In this document: positions 27,906 to 53,295 of the stretch, one piece after another | Layout of the letters: every line of letters starts with the position of its first letter | Position numbering within the stretch: the first letter of the stretch is position 1 | Made by a program: the position numbers and the translations under genes | The notes under the pieces: generated by a model | The model's database searches: none | The model's input: the letters and a program-made list of their open reading frames with translations, nothing else | What the model was told of the DNA's origin: nothing | Assembly: GCF_016903815.1 (NCBI RefSeq) | Contig: NZ_CP069973.1 | Direction: 5' to 3' (one strand) | Length of the DNA: 64,000 nucleotides | Origin: Escherichia coli | Lineage (GTDB): Bacteria; Pseudomonadota; Gammaproteobacteria; Enterobacterales; Enterobacteriaceae

Positions 27906-29795
27906 TTATGCGCTACGACGCAGCATACCCTGTTTTTTCAGCCATACCAGCAGAATGGAGATGGCCGCAGGCGTGACGCCAGAAATACGCGAAGCCTGGC
28001 CGATAGAGGCCGGTTTGTGATCGTTAAGTTTGGCGATCACTTCGTTAGAAAGACCGGATACCTGGCGGTAATCCAGCGTCGCTGGTAGCAGGGTGTTCTC
28101 GTTACGCAGCTGCTTTTCGATCTCATCTTGCTGGCGCGCGATATAACCTTCGTATTTAACCTGAATCTCAACCTGTTCCGCCGCCTGTTCGTCTGTCAAC
28201 GCAGGGGCAAACGGCGTCAGCGTGGTTAATTTTTCATAAGTCATTTCCGGACGACGCAGCAGATCTTCACCACTGGCTTCACGGGAAAGCGGCGCAGTCA
28301 GGTGAGCATTCACTTCGGCTGCAGCTTCCGCCGACGGGGTTACCCAGGTCGATTTCAGACGCTGACGCTCACGCTCGATATTCTCAAGTTTCTCGTTAAA
28401 GCGCGCCCAACGTTCGTCATCCACCAGGCCCAGTTCACGACCGATTTCAGTCAAACGCAGATCCGCATTATCTTCGCGCAGCATCAGACGATATTCTGCG
28501 CGCGAAGTAAACATACGATACGGTTCTTTGGTTCCTAAAGTGCACAGGTCATCAACCAGTACGCCGAGATACGCCTGAGAACGCGCCGGAGCCCAACCTT
28601 CTTTGTCAGCAGACAGACGGGCAGCGTTAAGACCAGCCAGCAAACCTTGCGCAGCGGCTTCTTCGTAACCGGTAGTGCCGTTAATCTGACCAGCAAAGAA
28701 CAGCCCCTGGATAAACTTGCTCTCCAGCGTCGGTTTCAGGTCGCGTGGATCGAAGAAGTCATACTCAATGGCATAACCCGGACGTACGATCTTCGCGTTT
28801 TCCATCCCCTGCATGGAGCGGACGATTTGCATCTGCACATCGAACGGCAGGCTGGTGGAGATACCGTTCGGATAAATTTCGTTTGAGGTCAGCCCTTCCG
28901 GTTCAAGGAAGATCTGATGCTGATTTCTGTCGGCGAAGCGCATGACTTTGTCTTCGATCGACGGGCAGTAGCGTGGGCCGACACCTTCGATCACCCCTGC
29001 ATACATTGGGCTACGATCGAGGTTACTGCGGATCACATCATGGGTTTTCTCGTTGGTATGGGTGATATAACACGGCACCTGCTGTGGATGCTGGGACGCA
29101 TTGCCCATAAACGAGAATACCGGCATTGGGTTATCGCCATGCTGTTGCGCCAGCACGCTGAAGTCGATAGTACGCGCATCAATACGCGGCGGTGTCCCGG
29201 TTTTCAGACGACCAACGCGCAGCGGCAGTTCACGCAAACGGCGAGAGAGCGGAATGGACGGCGGATCACCAGCACGGCCACCGCTGTAGTTATCCAGACC
29301 GATATGAATTTTACCGTCGAGGAACGTCCCAACGGTGAGCACGACGGCTTTGGCACGGAACTTCAGTCCCATTTGGGTAACAGCACCGACCACGCGATCG
29401 TTTTCGACAATAAGATCTTCAACCGCCTGCTGGAAGATCATCAGGTTCGGTTGGTTCTCCAGCGCCGTACGTACCGCCTGCCGGTAGAGCACACGATCCG
29501 CCTGAGCACGGGTAGCGCGAACCGCTGGCCCCTTGCTTGCGTTTAGTATCCTAAACTGGATACCCGCCTGATCGATCGCTTTCGCCATCAGACCGCCGAG
29601 TGCATCCACTTCTTTTACCAGATGTCCCTTCCCAATACCGCCGATCGCCGGGTTGCAGCTCATCTGCCCCAGAGTGTCGATATTGTGTGTCAAAAGCAGA
29701 GTCTGTTGACCCATACGCGCCGCGGCCATCGCGGCCTCGGTGCCTGCATGACCCCCGCCAATGATGATGACGTCAAAAGGATCCGGATAAAACAT
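27906..29795 (-). CDS. mnmG: tRNA uridine 5-carboxymethylaminomethyl modification enzyme
   Basis: 629 aa, N-terminal FAD motif [13 protein letters not shown]. Confidence 0.95.
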
Positions 29796-29883
29796 GGTGA
29801 TTGCCTCGCATAACGCGGTATGAAAATGGATTGAAGCCCGGGCCGTGGATTCTACTCAACTTTGTCGGCTTGAGAAAGACCTG

Positions 29884-30160
29884 GGATCCAGGGTATTAAA
29901 AAGAAGATCTATTTATTTAGAGATCTGTTCTATTGTGATCTCTTATTAGGATCGCACTGCCCTGTGGATAACAAGGATCCGGCTTTTAAGATCAACAACC
30001 TGGAAAGGATCATTAACTGTGAATGATCGGTGATCCTGGACCGTATAAGCTGGGATCAGAATGAGGGGTTATACACAACTCAAAAACTGAACAACGGTTG
30101 TTCTTTGGATAACTACCGGTTGATCCAAGCTTCCTGACAGAGTTATCCACAGTAGATCGC
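29884..30160. other. chromosomal replication origin oriC
   Basis: three AT-rich 13-mers GATCTATTTATTT (29906-29918), GATCTGTTCTATT (29922-29934), GATCTCTTATTAG (29937-29949); DnaA boxes TGTGGATAA (29963-29971) and TTATCCACA (30143-30151); dense GATC clustering; located between mnmG and mioC. Confidence 0.95.
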
Positions 30161-30173
30161 ACGATCTGTATAC

Positions 30174-30617
30174 TTATTTGAGTAAATTAATCCACGATCC
30201 CAGCCATTCTTCTGCCGGATCTTCCGGAATGTCGTGATCAAGAATGTTGATCTTCAGTGTTTCGCCTGTCTGTTTTGCACCGGAATTTTTGAGTTCTGCC
30301 TCGAGTTTATCGATAGCCCCACAAAAGGTGTCATATTCACGACTGCCAATACCGATAGCGCCAAAGCGGACCGCAGAAAGATCGGGCTTCTGTTCCTGCA
30401 ATGCTTCATAGAAAGGAGAAAGGTTATCCGGAATATCTCCGGCACCGTGGGTTGAGCTGATAACCAGCCAGATCCCCGAGGCAGATAAATCTTCCAACAG
30501 CGGACCGTGCAGCGTTTCGGTGGTAAAACCCGCCTCTTCCAGCTTTTCAGCCAGGTGTTCTGCCACATATTCGGCACCGCCGAGGGTGCTGCCGCTGATA
30601 AGAGTGATATCTGCCAT
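30174..30617 (-). CDS. mioC: flavodoxin-like FMN-binding protein MioC
   Basis: 147 aa recognised. Confidence 0.95.
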   Translation of the reverse strand: MADITLISGSTLGGAEYVAEHLAEKLEEAGFTTETLHGPLLEDLSASGIWLVISSTHGAGDIPDNLSPFYEALQEQKPDLSAVRFGAIGIGSREYDTFCGAIDKLEAELKNSGAKQTGETLKINILDHDIPEDPAEEWLGSWINLLK

Positions 30618-30706
30618 AAACCGCCACCTTTATTAAGAGTGGCGTATTGTACGCTGTGAACGCGTTGGGATCTACCTGTGGAAAAGTATGGGATTAAAAA
30701 AGCCGA

Positions 30707-31165
30707 TCAGGGCTTAATGGTACGCATGATCGGGTTCTGCAGGACGATCAGTGTCTCGGTGGACTGAATTTCATCAATTGTTTGGATCTTGTTGATAAGT
30801 ACATGCTGGAGAGCATCGATCGAACGGCACATCACTTTTATAAAGATGCTGTAGTGGCCGGTTGTGTAATAGGCTTCAGTGACTTCATCGAGGCTTTCCA
30901 GCTTTGCCAGCGCGGAAGGATAGTCTTTGGCGCTCTTTAATATAATGCCGATAAAGCAGCCTACGTCATAACCAAGCTGCTTCGGGCTGACATCAATACG
31001 CGCCCCGGTAATGATTCCCGCCTGCTTCATTTTCTCTACTCGAACGTGAATCGTCCCCGGACTGACGCCAAATTGTTTCGCCAGTTCGGCGTAAGCGGTG
31101 CGCGCATTGCCCATTAATGCTTCCAGGATGCCACGGTCCAGATTGTCGATTAGATAATTTTCCAT
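30707..31165 (-). CDS. asnC: Lrp/AsnC-family transcriptional regulator
   Basis: 152 aa recognised. Confidence 0.95.
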   Translation of the reverse strand: MENYLIDNLDRGILEALMGNARTAYAELAKQFGVSPGTIHVRVEKMKQAGIITGARIDVSPKQLGYDVGCFIGIILKSAKDYPSALAKLESLDEVTEAYYTTGHYSIFIKVMCRSIDALQHVLINKIQTIDEIQSTETLIVLQNPIMRTIKP

Positions 31166-31316
31166 AGGATTTTCTTATGCGGATTGATGATTCATTCTAT
31201 TTTAGCCTTCTTTTTTAATGAATCAAAAGTGAGTTAGGCTTTTTATTGAATGATTATTGCATGTGTGCCGGTTTTTGTTGCTTAATCATAAGCAACAGGA
31301 CGCAGGAGTATAAAAA

Positions 31317-32309
31317 ATGAAAACCGCTTACATTGCCAAACAACGCCAAATTAGCTTCGTGAAATCTCACTTTTCTCGTCAACTGGAAGAACGTCTGGGG
31401 CTGATCGAAGTCCAGGCGCCGATTCTTAGCCGTGTGGGGGATGGCACGCAGGATAACTTGTCGGGCTGTGAAAAAGCGGTGCAGGTAAAAGTAAAAGCTC
31501 TGCCTGATGCCCAGTTCGAAGTGGTTCATTCACTGGCGAAGTGGAAACGTCAGACCTTAGGGCAACACGACTTCAGCGCGGGCGAAGGGCTGTACACGCA
31601 CATGAAAGCCCTTCGCCCCGATGAAGACCGTCTTTCTCCGTTGCACTCGGTCTATGTAGACCAGTGGGACTGGGAACGCGTAATGGGCGACGGCGAGCGT
31701 CAATTCTCGACTCTGAAAAGCACGGTAGAGGCGATCTGGGCGGGAATTAAAGCAACCGAAGCTGCGGTTAGCGAAGAGTTTGGCCTGGCACCGTTCCTGC
31801 CGGATCAGATCCACTTCGTACACAGCCAGGAGTTACTGTCTCGTTATCCGGATCTCGATGCCAAAGGGCGTGAGCGGGCGATTGCGAAAGATCTTGGCGC
31901 GGTATTCCTCGTCGGGATTGGCGGCAAGTTGAGTGATGGTCATCGTCACGACGTGCGCGCACCGGATTATGATGACTGGAGCACCCCGTCAGAGCTGGGC
32001 CATGCGGGTCTGAACGGCGATATTCTGGTATGGAACCCGGTACTGGAAGATGCGTTTGAGCTTTCTTCCATGGGGATCCGCGTGGATGCCGATACGTTGA
32101 AGCATCAGCTGGCGCTGACCGGTGATGAAGATCGTCTGCAGCTGGAGTGGCATCAGGCGCTGCTGCGCGGTGAAATGCCGCAGACCATCGGCGGCGGTAT
32201 CGGCCAGTCTCGTTTGACCATGCTGCTGCTGCAACTGCCGCATATCGGCCAGGTTCAGTGTGGTGTATGGCCGGCAGCTGTTCGCGAGAGCGTCCCTTCT
32301 CTGCTGTAA
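31317..32309 (+). CDS. asnA: aspartate--ammonia ligase (asparagine synthetase A)
   Basis: 330 aa recognised; divergent from asnC. Confidence 0.95.
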
Positions 32310-32313
32310 TTGT

Positions 32314-33765
32314 TTATCGCCGCCAGCGTCTGAGCAGGCGGCTTCGCATCCCGGTATCAAAGCGCCAGATATGATCGAAAATGCGCATGATGCCGGGTTT
32401 GCCATGTGCCGACATCGCCACGGCATGAAAGCGATGCTGATGTACCCGCTGCAACTCTTTCACTTTGCTCGTCACGTCGTCAGGCAACCGCTGGGCGATA
32501 AAATCAGAAATCACCACCGCATCGGCGTCAAACCACTCCCGACTTTGCAAGCGTTCCATAATGGCGCGAAAACAACTGGCCAGATCGGTGCCGCCACGAA
32601 ACTGCTGACTTAAAAAGCGGATCGCTTGTTCGATGCCTTGTGGGCCTGAAAGCTCATAACGGACGATCTCGGTGGAAAATAGCATAATATAGCAGCGCCG
32701 GTTTTCAGCGAGAGCAATGCGCATCAAGGCCAGGCAGAACGCTTTCGCACACTGTTCATTAAAGCCGCCCATTGAGCCGGAAGTATCCACACAGACAATA
32801 AACGGTCCGCGCGGCTGTTCGTCGTAATCTTTATGTACCACCGGACGTTCGATCACTTTTTCTCGCCACGACTCACCGTGCAGGCGATAGGTGAGCAACT
32901 GTTTTTCCACCAGCCGACGGTAAAACTCATACTCCAGTTCTGTTATCCCTAGTGTCGCCAGTTCTGGCGGCAGGAGACGTAAAATATCATCGCTTTGTTG
33001 CAGACCATCAACCTGCTCAGGAACCGTCGCCGGTTCGCGCACCATGGTGCGGAAGGTTTCCATCTGCGCATCGTTGCGCGGTATTGATTTGGCTTCCCGG
33101 GAACGCCCCAGCTGTTCTGCCAGGCGTTTCAGTTCCGGCTGTTCGTTAAGAAATTCACCGTATTTCACAATCAACTGATAGTCGCCACGTTTAAGCTGAC
33201 CGGCGCTCATATCCCACAGACGACCAGCTGCGGTATTGTTATCTGCGAGAATCGGTTCAAGTTGTCCGCTCAGCGTCATGCGTTCCTGAACTTCACTCAA
33301 CAGTTGTTCGCGTTCTTCTTCTAATAGCTGTTGATTTAACGTCGTTGCTTGCACGATCAGACTTAAACGCCAACGCTGGAGAAAAAGCGTGTGTAACGCT
33401 GAAGTGATCGTGCTGTTAGCATCAACCAACTGTCGGGCTTGTTCTGCCCATGGGGAATTCAGACGATGCAGTAAGTCCAGGATCTGTGGTAGCTGCACAA
33501 TAAACTGCGGCGTGGAGAGGAGCTGGCTTTGCTGATAGCACATCACCTCTTCGGTGAGTTCCGGCGGGACTCGGGCATCTTTCAGCCGACTGCGCAGCGC
33601 CTCACGCCAGCGGGGAACATCATCAGTGATTGCCGCCTTCAGTCGTGGGAATTTTTCAAAGAAGACTGCCAGCTGCGGTGAGGCCAGCAGCGCGATGATC
33701 ATCTCTTCGATCAATCCCTCTTCGCTGACGGCCAGCATCACATTAAGCGTATCCAGCGTTAGCAT
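32314..33765 (-). CDS. viaA: VWA-domain protein interacting with RavA
   Basis: 483 aa recognised. Confidence 0.9.
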
Positions 33766-35255
33766 TGTTGTGCCTGGCGAATCTGTGCGCCGACATCCTG
33801 TAGGCTGGCTTCAATGCGACCTAACCAGTCGCCAGGGATAAACAGACATTTTTGCTGTTCGCTGAATAAAGCGTGTTGCTTGCGCCAGTCGCTTTCAAGC
33901 TCTTCCAGTTGTTGTTTTATTTCACCTGGCAGACCTTCAGCCGATGAACCGGGAAGTGCCAACGTACTGCCTTGTAAACTTACATCGCGTACAACAAGAT
34001 GTTGGGCGCTATCCACTTCCAGATTCAATTTCTGAGCAAAGCCGATACCGTTCAGTTTGCCGCGAATTTCACCACCTTTACTCAGCCACTGTTCCAGCGC
34101 GTTACGCTCAAAGGAGATATGAACCACTTCCATATCATGCAGTTTTAACGGTTTTTGCAGCAGCAGAGTCAGAGTGGAAGCAGTAACGTTAACAGGGAGT
34201 TGATACTGCTGACGACGGCTGAAAATGCCGCCCAGACGAATTACCGTTAAGGCTGTTTTATCGCTTTGTTGCTGCTGTAGTTGCAGGTGACGTTGCACAA
34301 TCGCGCCCAGGCGGGTCAACATCCCTTGCTGTTGCCAGGCATGACCGGTCATCAATACATCAATTTGTTGTTGTATCAAATTCAGGCTTTGCGCGTCATA
34401 CCACAGGCAATCTTTCAGCAAAATGAGATCAACCGGGGCAACAGCACTGCGACCGTTAAAAAAGGCGCTGGCCTGCAATAAGCGGATCGCTTTTTTCCAG
34501 CGACGATCCGAGACATAAGGCGCATCCGGTAATTTATCCAGTTGCTGGCGCAGCATAAAAATCAGCTCAAATACATGATCGGGCAGCGTAATTTCACCAA
34601 TCTCTTTCTGCCAGCGTTCATATTCTTCATCTGTGACCTGCAAGGAGGCAGGAACCGGATTGTCGTTTTCATCCTGTTGACTGGTCAGCATGGAGCGGAA
34701 ATTCGCTTTATCCTGCACTTTATCTAACCACAGACGAATCAGCATGCGGTCATATAACGCTTCCAGACTGCTGTCTGCTTCCGGCAGCTCGTTGGAGGCC
34801 GCCACCAGCAGGCGCATCGGGATTTTTTCTACGTGTGCACCGTTGCGGAACTGGCGCTCGTTAATGGCGGTGAGCAAGGTATTAAGAATTGCCGGGCCCG
34901 CTTTCCAGATCTCATCCAGAAAGACGATTTCTGCTTCCGGCAGGTAACCGCTGGTTAAACGTTCATAGCGCCCTTCATCTTTTAGCGCCTGAATAGAAAG
35001 GGGACCAAAAACCTCTTCCGGCGTGGAGAAGCGGGTCATCAGATATTCAAACGCGCGGGCATTCTGAAAGGCGAATTTTAAGCGCCGGGCGATCAAACTT
35101 TTGGCAATGCCTGGCGGGCCAAGGAGGAACACACTTTCACCACTTAATGCCGCTAATAAACACAAGCGGATGGCGTGGCTACGTTCATAAAGCCCCTTTT
35201 CCAACGAACTGCTCAGGCGGGAAATTCTTTCCGCTAATAAATGAGGGTGAGCCAT
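33759..35255 (-). CDS. ravA: MoxR-family AAA+ ATPase RavA (498 aa from MAHPHLL)
   Basis: Walker A GPPGIAKS; overlaps viaA start by 7 nt; ORF track extends 8 codons upstream. Confidence 0.93.
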
Positions 35256-37387: not shown

Positions 37388-38096
37388 CACAGAAAACCCC
37401 CAGCTAGGCTGGGGGTTCCGGAAAGCTTTCAGCTTTGAGCCAGTTATTAAAACCCCTTTTGATTTGTTAAAACACCTTGCGGTCTGGCAACTGCAAGTGT
37501 CAAACAAGAAATCAAAAGGGGGTCCCAATGGGGAACGAAAAGAGCTTAGCGCACACCCGATGGAACTGTAAATATCACATAGTTTTTGCGCCAAAATACC
37601 GAAGACAGGTGTTCTACAGAGAGAAGCGTAGAGCAATAGGCAGTATTTTGAGAAAGCTGTGTGAGTGGAAAAGCGTACGGATTCTGGAAGCTGAATGCTG
37701 TGCAGATCATATCCATATGCTTGTGGAGATCCCGCCCAAAATGAGCGTATCCGGGTTTATGGGATATCTGAAAGGGAAAAGCAGTCTGATGCTTTACGAG
37801 CAGTTTGGTGATTTGAAATTCAAATACAGGAACAGGGAGTTCTGGTGCAGAGGGTACTACGTCGATACAGTGGGTAAGAACACGGCGAAGATACAGGATT
37901 ACATAAAGCACCAGCTTGAAGAGGATAAAATGGGAGAGCAGTTATCGATTCCCTATCCGGGCAGCCCGTTTACGGGCCGTAAGTAACGAAGTTGGATGCA
38001 AATGTCAGATCGTGTGCGCCTGTTAGGGCGCGGCTGGTAAGAGAGCCTTATAGGCGCATTTGAAAAACCTCCGGCTATGCCGGAGGATATTTATTT
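37388..38096 (+). mobile_element. IS200-type insertion sequence (IS200/IS605 family); ends approximate
   Basis: Y1/HuH transposase ORF; perfect 8-bp stem hairpin CCCCCAGC-TAG-GCTGGGGG (37397-37415) typical of the IS200 left end; second stem CCCCTTTT...AAAAGGGG (37447-37519) ending just before the RBS/start; kup-rbsD spacer is about 700 bp longer than the roughly 200 bp I remember for K-12. Confidence 0.7.
37528..37986 (+). CDS. tnpA: IS200 transposase TnpA (HuH Y1 transposase, 152 aa from MGNEKSLAHTRWNCKYH)
   Basis: recognised IS200 TnpA with HuH motif (ADHIHMLVEIPP) and catalytic Tyr region; ORF track starts further upstream. Confidence 0.9.
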   Translation: MGNEKSLAHTRWNCKYHIVFAPKYRRQVFYREKRRAIGSILRKLCEWKSVRILEAECCADHIHMLVEIPPKMSVSGFMGYLKGKSSLMLYEQFGDLKFKYRNREFWCRGYYVDTVGKNTAKIQDYIKHQLEEDKMGEQLSIPYPGSPFTGRK

Positions 38097-46678: not shown

Positions 46679-48220
<1,542 letters not shown>

Positions 48221-48305
48221 CCTTAAAGAAGCGTTCTTTGAAGTGCTCACACAGATTGTCTGATAGAAAGTGAAAAGCAAGGCGTCTTGCGAAGCAGACT
48301 GACAC

Positions 48306-48381
48306 GTCCCCTTCGTCTAGAGGCCCAGGACACCGCCCTTTCACGGCGGTAACAGGGGTTCGAATCCCCTAGGGGACGCCA
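48306..48381 (+). tRNA. gltU: tRNA-Glu (anticodon UUC), spacer tRNA
   Basis: GTCCCCTTCGTCTAGAGGCCCAGGACACCGCCCTTTCACGGCGGTAACAGGGGTTCGAATCCCCTAGGGGACGCCA. Confidence 0.97.
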
Positions 48382-48575
48382 CTTGCTGGTTTGTGAGTGA
48401 AAGTCACCTGCCTTAATATCTCAAAACTCATCTTCGGGTGATGTTTGAGATATTTGCTCTTTAAAAATCTGGATCAAGCTGAAAATTGAAACACTGAACA
48501 ACGAAAGTTGTTCGTGAGTCTCTCAAATTTTCGCAACACGATGATGAATCGAAAGAAACATCTTCGGGTTGTGAG

Positions 48576-51479
<2,904 letters not shown>

Positions 51480-51571
51480 ACAACGCCGAAGATGTTTTGG
51501 CGGATGAGAGAAGATTTTCAGCCTGATACAGATTAAATCAGAACGCAGAAGCGGTCTGATGAAACAGAATT

Positions 51572-51691
51572 TGCCTGGCGGCCGTAGCGCGGTGGTCCCA
51601 CCTGACCCCATGCCGAACTCAGAAGTGAAACGCCGTAGCGCCGATGGTAGTGTGGGGTCTCCCCATGCGAGAGTAGGGAACTGCCAGGCAT
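51572..51691 (+). rRNA. rrfC: 5S ribosomal RNA
   Basis: TGCCTGGCGGC...CTGCCAGGCAT, 120 nt. Confidence 0.97.
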
Positions 51692-51743
51692 CAAATTTAG
51701 CAGTAAGCCGGTCATAAAACCGGTGGTTGTAAAAGAATTCGGT

Positions 51744-51820
51744 GGAGCGGTAGTTCAGTCGGTTAGAATACCTGCCTGTCACGCAGGGGGTCGCGGGTTC
51801 GAGTCCCGTCCGTTCCGCCA
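51744..51820 (+). tRNA. aspT: tRNA-Asp (anticodon GUC)
   Basis: GGAGCGGTAGTTCAGTCGGTTAGAATACCTGCCTGTCACGCAGGGGGTCGCGGGTTCGAGTCCCGTCCGTTCCGCCA. Confidence 0.97.
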
Positions 51821-51828
51821 CCCTAATT

Positions 51829-51904
51829 AGGGGCGTAGTTCAATTGGTAGAGCACCGGTCTCCAAAACCGGGTGTTGGGAGTTCGAGTCTCTCCGCCCCT
51901 GCCA
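51829..51904 (+). tRNA. trpT: tRNA-Trp (anticodon CCA)
   Basis: AGGGGCGTAGTTCAATTGGTAGAGCACCGGTCTCCAAAACCGGGTGTTGGGAGTTCGAGTCTCTCCGCCCCTGCCA. Confidence 0.97.
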
Positions 51905-51998: not shown

Positions 51999-52838
51999 TT
52001 AATACACTTCATCCAGCACGTTAATTTTCAATAGATCGCGAATCAACGCATTTTTATCGCTATTTTGCAGCCATATGGCATAAAGCGGCCGTGAAAGTGT
52101 TGTGCTATCGACAACGGTATGCAGGCCGCCTTTTTTACGCGCCCAACTGACGGGTAGCCAGGTGCAACCATTAAGCGTCGCAATCTGTTGCTGTGCCAGT
52201 TCAGCAGAACTGGTTGTCAGAATGGGAACTTCGTCAGCACCGATCAAACCTGCCTCATGCTGTTGAAAATCTGGCCCCCATTCCAGTCGCAGATAGTTAA
52301 GATCTCCCTTTAGTTTGGAAGGGGCACTGGTATAAAGCGCTAAAGTGAAATACCCGAGCAACTGACTGCTAAATTCGTCCATTTTGGGCGCTTCAGTAGT
52401 AATAAGAAGATCAAGCTGGCGTTCATGCAGCTGTTTTACCAGAGACTGCCGTTGGGCAATTCGCGCTTCGAACTGTAAGCCTGTATGGGCATCCTGATTT
52501 TTATACAAACGTCCCAGCCACTGATTAAGCATACATTCCCACAATGAGGCGCTGGCACCGATAGAAAACTCGTTATGTCGTGAGGTATGCGCCACCTCCT
52601 TACGGGCGGCCTGCCAGGTGCTCATGAGCGTTTCTGCATAAGGCAGTAGTTTTTCACCGGCAGCGGTTAAACGGATATTGTTTCTGTGGCGGGTGAAAAG
52701 GTTCACACCCAGTTGATTTTCCAGTTGTCTGATTCGAAAGCTCACGGCTGATTGGGTCAGATAGAGCGATTCAGCCGCTCGACCAAAGTGACGCGTTCGG
52801 CTAACTTCCAGGAAAGTTTTTAACAATTCCGTATCCAC
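51999..52838 (-). CDS. hdfR: LysR-family transcriptional regulator HdfR
   Basis: 279 aa, N-terminal LysR HTH. Confidence 0.92.
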
Positions 52839-52956
52839 AGTGCTCTCCGCAAAATTATTTGTCGTTATGATTTAAATGTTTTGTTTTACACTCTGTCAAG
52901 CGTAACTAATACTCCGCGCCATAACTAGCTCGGTCAAAGAATTAGGAGCGTGCAGG

Positions 52957-53295
52957 ATGGCGGAAAGCTTTACGACGACTAATCGATATTTCGACAATAA
53001 ACATTATCCACGTGGATTCTCTCGTCATGGTGACTTCACCATCAAAGAGGCACAACTGCTTGAGCGTCATGGTTATGCCTTCAATGAGTTGGATCTTGGC
53101 AAACGCGAGCCGGTTACCGAGGAAGAGAAACTCTTCGTAGCAGTATGCCGTGGCGAACGTGAGCCAGTGACAGAAGCAGAACGCGTGTGGTCCAAGTATA
53201 TGACGCGTATCAAGCGTCCAAAACGTTTTCACACCCTTTCCGGCGGTAAACCGCAGGTTGAAGGTGCTGAAGACTACACCGATTCTGACGATTAA
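52957..53295 (+). CDS. yifE: DUF413-family protein YifE (MaoP)
   Basis: 112 aa recognised; divergent from hdfR. Confidence 0.9.

Follow-up and report, generated by a model that had tools for sequence, protein, structure and literature searches.

A canonical oriC, strand bias carried by long operons and the Z-locus island in a 64-kb window of an Escherichia coli chromosome

The window analysed here, a single stretch of 64,000 nucleotides, contains the textbook chromosomal origin of E. coli, flanked by genes with a strand bias towards co-direction with replication, by a GC-skew switch and by the low-GC Z5211-Z5214 island (Z-locus). It is very probable that one explanation covers all of these: a canonical origin, an ordinary strand bias and skew switch around it, and an island whose orientation is a historical accident without a detectable selection signal. 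All four components (origin, strand bias, skew switch and island) have been described already, and no new biology is involved. The finding serves as an anchor, as it fixes the window as E. coli chromosome, as the oriC region and as part of a Z-locus-carrying lineage, and sets the direction of replication, which aids the interpretation of all other findings in the 64 kb.

The origin lies between mnmG and mioC (30174-30617, minus strand). The segment 29882-30180 aligned gap-free to the annotated origin_of_replication of MG1655 with an identity of 298/300 (99.3%), the 13-mers and DnaA boxes matching, as the comparison with an annotated E. coli oriC proposed by the sequence-only reading had anticipated. 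That reading placed the origin accurately, from the classical BamHI site to 9 bp beyond R4, and was right that oriC is present but not that the window is centred on it, the midpoint at 30022 being ~2 kb left of the true centre. The two substitutions relative to MG1655 are 29890 T>A, which is left of the AT-cluster, after the BamHI site and outside the minimal origin, and 30096 A>G, which is between R2 and R3/C3 and is the only base differing from K-12 across the low-affinity-site region; neither falls inside any box or 13-mer mapped here. Nothing observed speaks against its being oriC, and with 99.3% identity to the experimentally defined K-12 origin the site would be expected to fire bidirectionally under the control of DnaA.

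A 901-bp query around oriC matched 5424 of 5426 complete E. coli genomes, several at 100% and always between mnmG and mioC, and the 277-bp oriC region reached >=95% identity in every matching genome except one and was chromosomal in each case, never on a plasmid. Gene annotation was taken from the RefSeq record of E. coli strain 7/2 (NZ_CP023820.1, 4229499-4293498), and could be transferred base for base because the window differs from that record at only three positions, without indels. These differences are at 4999 (espY4), 48838 (23S rRNA) and 62176 (ilvY), and mark the source of the window as very closely related to strain 7/2 but distinct from it.

The 13-mers, DnaA boxes and dense GATC sites that the sequence-only reading had recognised as a canonical oriC were all located (Table 1). 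Exact matches to TTATNCACA number six in the 64 kb (both strands), three of which fall inside a single 189-bp stretch of oriC. The low-affinity boxes R5M and I1 match exactly the K-12 oriC box sequences TCATTCACA and TTATACGGT, and the low-affinity arrays (R5M, tau, I1-3, C1-3) and the predicted IHF and Fis sites are identical to those of K-12 save at 30096. The left-hand DnaA boxes share one orientation and R2 and R4 have the opposite one, in agreement with the K-12 architecture (PMC5716108, PMC9198467). Three tandem AT-rich 13-mers starting with GATC make up the duplex unwinding element, which is flanked by the AT-cluster (PMC9198467). A window-wide search with the 13-mer consensus allowing 3 mismatches was uninformative, giving 267 matches against 200 expected, mostly in the AT-rich island; among them, only the tandem triplet is meaningful.

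The 277 bp contain 13 GATC sites, where the window average predicts 1.33 (Poisson P=2e-9), and the densest interval elsewhere in the window has 7 sites. The minimal origin (29906-30151) contains 11, which is the classical number. GATC clusters at the origin serve sequestration by SeqA, and by analogy with K-12 the hemimethylated origin would be sequestered in this way after firing.

The initiation mechanism has been established for K-12 (PMC9198467, PMC5716108) and probably extends to the present oriC, given its near-identity to the K-12 sequence. DnaA would bind R1, R2 and R4 first, after which ATP-DnaA would fill the two oppositely oriented arrays of low-affinity boxes, and IHF would bend the R1-R5M interspace. 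The M and R 13-mers would then be unwound, with help from the AT-cluster and the L 13-mer, and bidirectional replication would follow the loading of two DnaB helicases (hexamers).

Table 1. Coordinates of the origin elements, flanking gene blocks and island features in the 64-kb window
Feature	Coordinates	Strand	Remarks
Z5211-Z5214 island (Z-locus)	3679-10684		low GC; between yieH and phoU
espY4	3815-6223	-	Z-locus; co-directional
Pentapeptide-repeat gene, 395 aa	6529-7716	+	Z-locus middle gene; head-on
794-aa ORF	8186-10570	-	Z-locus; phoU-proximal; paralogue of the espY4 product; co-directional
Uninterrupted minus-strand gene run	8186-31165	-	from the 794-aa ORF through oriC to asnC
Remnant (frameshifted pseudo-ORF)	10537-10684	-	phoU-side island edge; overlaps the 5' end of the 794-aa ORF
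mnmG (gidA)	27906-29795	-	left neighbour of oriC; transcribed away from oriC, co-directional
oriC region	29884-30160		BamHI-site start, AT-cluster, minimal oriC, 9 bp past R4
GATC (Dam/SeqA) cluster	29885-30252		13 sites in 29884-30160, then 5 more into the mioC 3' end
DUE-flanking AT-cluster	29894-29905	+	TATTAAAAAGAA; exact string match; element defined in PMC9198467
Duplex unwinding element (DUE)	29906-29949	+	L/M/R 13-mers GATCTATTTATTT, GATCTGTTCTATT, GATCTCTTATTAG; K-12-identical
L 13-mer	29906-29918	+	exact string match
M 13-mer	29922-29934	+	exact string match
R 13-mer	29937-29949	+	exact string match
DnaA box R1	29963-29971	-	TTATCCACA; exact consensus; high affinity; left end of DnaA-oligomerization region (role, PMC5716108)
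R1-R5M interspace	29972-30017		K-12-identical; K-12 counterpart holds IHF-binding site and tau1 box; placement here predicted after PMC5716108
DnaA box R5M	30018-30026	-	TCATTCACA; exact match; low affinity; region K-12-identical
DnaA box I1	30040-30048	-	TTATACGGT; exact match; low affinity, ATP-DnaA preferred; region K-12-identical
DnaA box R2	30069-30077	+	TTATACACA; exact consensus match; middle region
R3 box	30104-30112	-	TTATCCAAA; exact match; K-12-identical; overlaps C3/C2 low-affinity sites of right region
DnaA box R4	30143-30151	+	TTATCCACA; exact consensus; high affinity; bounds DnaA-oligomerization region on the right; opposite in orientation to R1
Origin-proximal right block	30174-35255	-	4/5 genes head-on: mioC, asnC, viaA, ravA minus; asnA alone plus
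rrnC operon	46679-51904	+	16S, tRNA-Glu, 23S, 5S, tRNA-Asp, tRNA-Trp; co-directional; strongest positive skew in window

Replication from oriC is bidirectional, and since forks depart both ways, a gene is co-directional with replication if it is on the minus strand to the left or on the plus strand to the right. The sequence-only reading held that nearly all genes to the left are on the minus strand, that most to the right are on the plus strand and that both arrangements are co-directional, which is borne out by 22 of the 26 left-hand features and 24 of the 33 right-hand ones (18 of 27 CDS), both majorities matching fork direction (co-orientation by gene on both sides, Fisher P=1.6e-5). The bias is gone when transcription units, defined from K-12 operon knowledge and intergenic gaps, are counted instead, 7/10 being co-oriented to the left of oriC and 8/15 to the right (Fisher P=0.41). 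Units that are co-oriented have a median length of 2499 bp, compared with 1040 bp for head-on ones (P=0.016), and add up to 46.2 kb, against 12.4 kb. The strand bias is thus carried by long operons: those that are long and highly expressed or essential (pst, glmUS, atp and mnmG-rsmG on the left; rbs, rrnC and ilv on the right) follow the well-known co-directional bias, and short regulatory and accessory units, including the regulators asnC, hdfR, ilvY and yieP, depart from it. As a first point of method, counting orientation gene by gene makes the evidence look stronger than it is, since the members of one operon are not independent of each other.

Gene orientation had also been said to flip around oriC. 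The bias between the two sides stands, but the flip does not appear to be located at oriC, as its two neighbours, mnmG and mioC, share the minus strand. The switch that maximises co-orientation lies at the ravA-kup junction (~35.3 kb), where 49 features are co-oriented, compared with 46 when the switch is placed at oriC. mioC is transcribed toward oriC, which is a long-known trait of the K-12 origin.

The glmU-atpC intergenic region has a match to the Rfam sRNA family STnc410 (187 bits, 19448-19605, plus strand), on the strand opposite both adjoining operons and head-on to the leftward fork. The divergent pair hdfR (minus) and maoP (plus) is at 51999-53295, ~22 kb right of oriC, and maoP is annotated as the Ori macrodomain organisation protein MaoP.

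Plus-strand GC skew changes from -0.052 on the left side of oriC to +0.051 on the right side. The cumulative-skew minimum, at base resolution, coincides with the maximum-likelihood two-state change point at 29759, which is within the first codons of mnmG and 125 bp left of the oriC region; its 2-log support interval (28670-30718) includes oriC, so that the sign change expected near 30.0 kb is found. The change point has a log-likelihood gain of 42.9, which is still >=15 with the island and rrnC masked, and it is unmoved by masking the AT-rich island alone or the island and rrnC together.

It is possible, though unlikely, that this skew flip is merely a by-product of the flip in gene orientation, through the G excess of coding strands, and so gives no independent evidence of where replication starts. 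In a weighted regression of per-gene plus-strand skew the gene-strand term dominates (t=4.5, against t=2.4 for side), as it does at 4-fold degenerate sites (t=3.7, against a non-significant t=1.3), and the head-on viaA-ravA genes have negative plus-strand skew despite being on the right replichore, the skew of the whole origin-proximal right block being only +0.010. However, the side term is positive in both regressions, and the change point falls at oriC and not at the ~35.3 kb orientation optimum, where a change point is 3.8 log-likelihood units worse. The origin is, moreover, fixed independently by sequence identity, and 64 kb offers little power to separate the two effects. Within the window, skew follows gene strand more than replichore side, and the switch at ~29.8 kb is the ordinary asymmetry of leading and lagging strands, which coding-strand skew largely reinforces and with which it is confounded. 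GC skew in windows as short as this one is confounded with gene strand, which is a second point of method.

The low-GC block between yieH and phoU is the Z-locus, which here replaces the bgl island. Its GC content is 31.4% and that of the flanks ~52%. The two large proteins are paralogous (38% identity over 572 residues, E=1e-108), and all three proteins have weak Pfam pentapeptide-repeat matches, nearly all under curated cut-offs; a scan against NCBIfam gave nothing for the two large proteins and, for the middle one, only a far-sub-threshold pentapeptide (SmQnr) match. Z5211-Z5214 was described by Sankar et al. 2009 (PMC2646131) as an alternative to bgl, with ~30% GC and without mobility genes, found in 19% of the strains studied and passed on clonally in phylogroup D and lineages related to it. 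Among 5426 genomes, 1109 match the Z-locus query, of which ~1,060-1,109 (~20%) truly carry the island, as the listed match of lowest rank extends over only ~150 bp of core sequence next to phoU; in every matching genome it is in a single place. O157:H7 has the same collinear block in the same orientation beside phoU. At this site K-12 has the alternative bgl-yieLK-cbrBC island, with 6/8 genes co-directional, and co-directional coding bases amount to 81% in the Z-locus and 88% in the bgl island.

The 794-aa ORF is intact and of equal length here and in O157:H7 (7501-9885 of the compared locus), and the comparison between the two identifies it as a hypervariable allele at a fixed locus. It has a dN of 0.27, a dS of 0.32 and a dN/dS of about 0.8, and is most divergent in its C-terminal third, where identity per 50 residues falls to 24-38%. 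Between the two genomes the flanking core has 97.2-97.6% identity and espY4 has 95.9%.

The sequence-only reading noted that the acquired effector-like genes follow the same orientation rule as the core genes, which is correct for the two large genes, but it overlooked the middle gene, which is head-on. Its proposal that this orientation suggests long residence or selection against head-on insertion, which does not hold up, is here considered improbable. Both large genes are on the leading strand, the bgl island of K-12 is mostly co-directional as well, and the Z-locus is old enough to occur in divergent lineages including O157:H7, with a dS as given above for one gene. Against this, the Z-locus is one collinear block at one locus, clonally inherited and with the same orientation in all carriers (PMC2646131), so that its orientation is one historical event and not several trials, and within that event one of the three genes is head-on. 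In non-polC bacteria ~55% of horizontally transferred genes lie on the leading strand (PMC5054707), and against this baseline two co-directional genes have a P of ~0.30, and at least two of three a P of ~0.57. At 31% GC the island is not ameliorated.

Co-direction is no sign of age either, as the recent IS200C insertion between kup and rbsD is also co-directional. The insertion occupies 37395-37986 on the plus strand, with tnpA at 37528-37986 and a match to the Rfam family STnc490 at 37395-37518; it is found at this site in only 93 of 5426 complete genomes and is evidently recent, and the strains that match it have ~19-24 IS200 places each.

Silencing by H-NS is typical of such AT-rich islands (PMC2646131), and it would leave little transcription to clash with replication. 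A literature search on 'EspY4' returned only virulence-gene lists and nothing on Z-locus expression or H-NS silencing, so this silent-island argument is one that we infer. The negative plus-strand skew of the head-on island gene was considered as a sign of long exposure to replication-linked mutation and rejected, as its 25 informative 4-fold sites are too few. That the Z-locus is old within E. coli is suggested by evidence unrelated to orientation, as it is common to O157:H7 and more divergent than the flanking core.

The orientation of the Z-locus is instead attributed to historical accident, a single entry followed by vertical inheritance; that no selection signal is detectable is argued from low statistical power, which stops short of demonstrating neutrality. 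The third point of method is that the orientation of one inherited island cannot support claims of selection or age. Both alternative yieH-phoU islands being mostly co-directional could reflect orientation-dependent filtering of insertions near oriC, where multifork replication makes fork passage most frequent, though the chance of this is slight; if true, 'selection against head-on' would apply to acquired DNA as a rule of position.

It is most improbable that the true orientation switch is at the ravA-kup junction, ~5 kb right of oriC, as the effective start of the rightward fork or an ancestral origin position: the higher count of co-oriented features there and a secondary cumulative-skew dip at ~35 kb are set against a gap of only three genes in two transcription units, a likelihood of the skew that favours oriC, the transcription of mioC toward the origin, long known in K-12, and a search of the window that found no DnaA-box, 13-mer or GATC cluster near 35.3 kb. 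A displaced origin at ~35.3 kb, taken from the skew dip and the orientation optimum together, was accordingly rejected, with no origin motifs there and a likelihood 3.8 log units lower.

The origin of K-12 MG1655 (NC_000913.3 3925744-3925975) has the same flanking genes, mnmG/gidA and mioC, and the same order, spacing and orientation of the AT-cluster, the L, M and R 13-mers and the R1, R5M, I1, R2, R3 and R4 boxes, with 11 GATC sites; the present origin differs from it in the point substitutions at 29890 and 30096. The genome average for genes on the leading strand in E. coli is ~55%, and the bias in the present window, at 78% of features, is above it. As in bacterial gene-strand bias generally (PMC11040001, PMC5054707), leading-strand genes are in excess on both replichores, with the rRNA operon and the long, highly expressed operons running in the direction of replication; the present case differs in that counting by transcription unit removes the bias and the switch does not appear to fall exactly at the origin.

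The Z-locus of O157:H7 and phylogroup D (PMC2646131) resembles the present island in its yieH-phoU site, ~30% GC, two paralogous large ORFs, lack of mobility genes and presence in ~20% of strains. The middle gene is annotated with 395 aa here and with 223 aa (672 bp; 5845-6516 of the compared locus) in O157:H7 Z1504, the 794-aa ORF has 75.7% DNA and 56% protein identity to the O157:H7 allele, and the remnant at the phoU-side edge is frameshifted here, whereas O157:H7 is annotated with an intact 135-bp ORF at that position.
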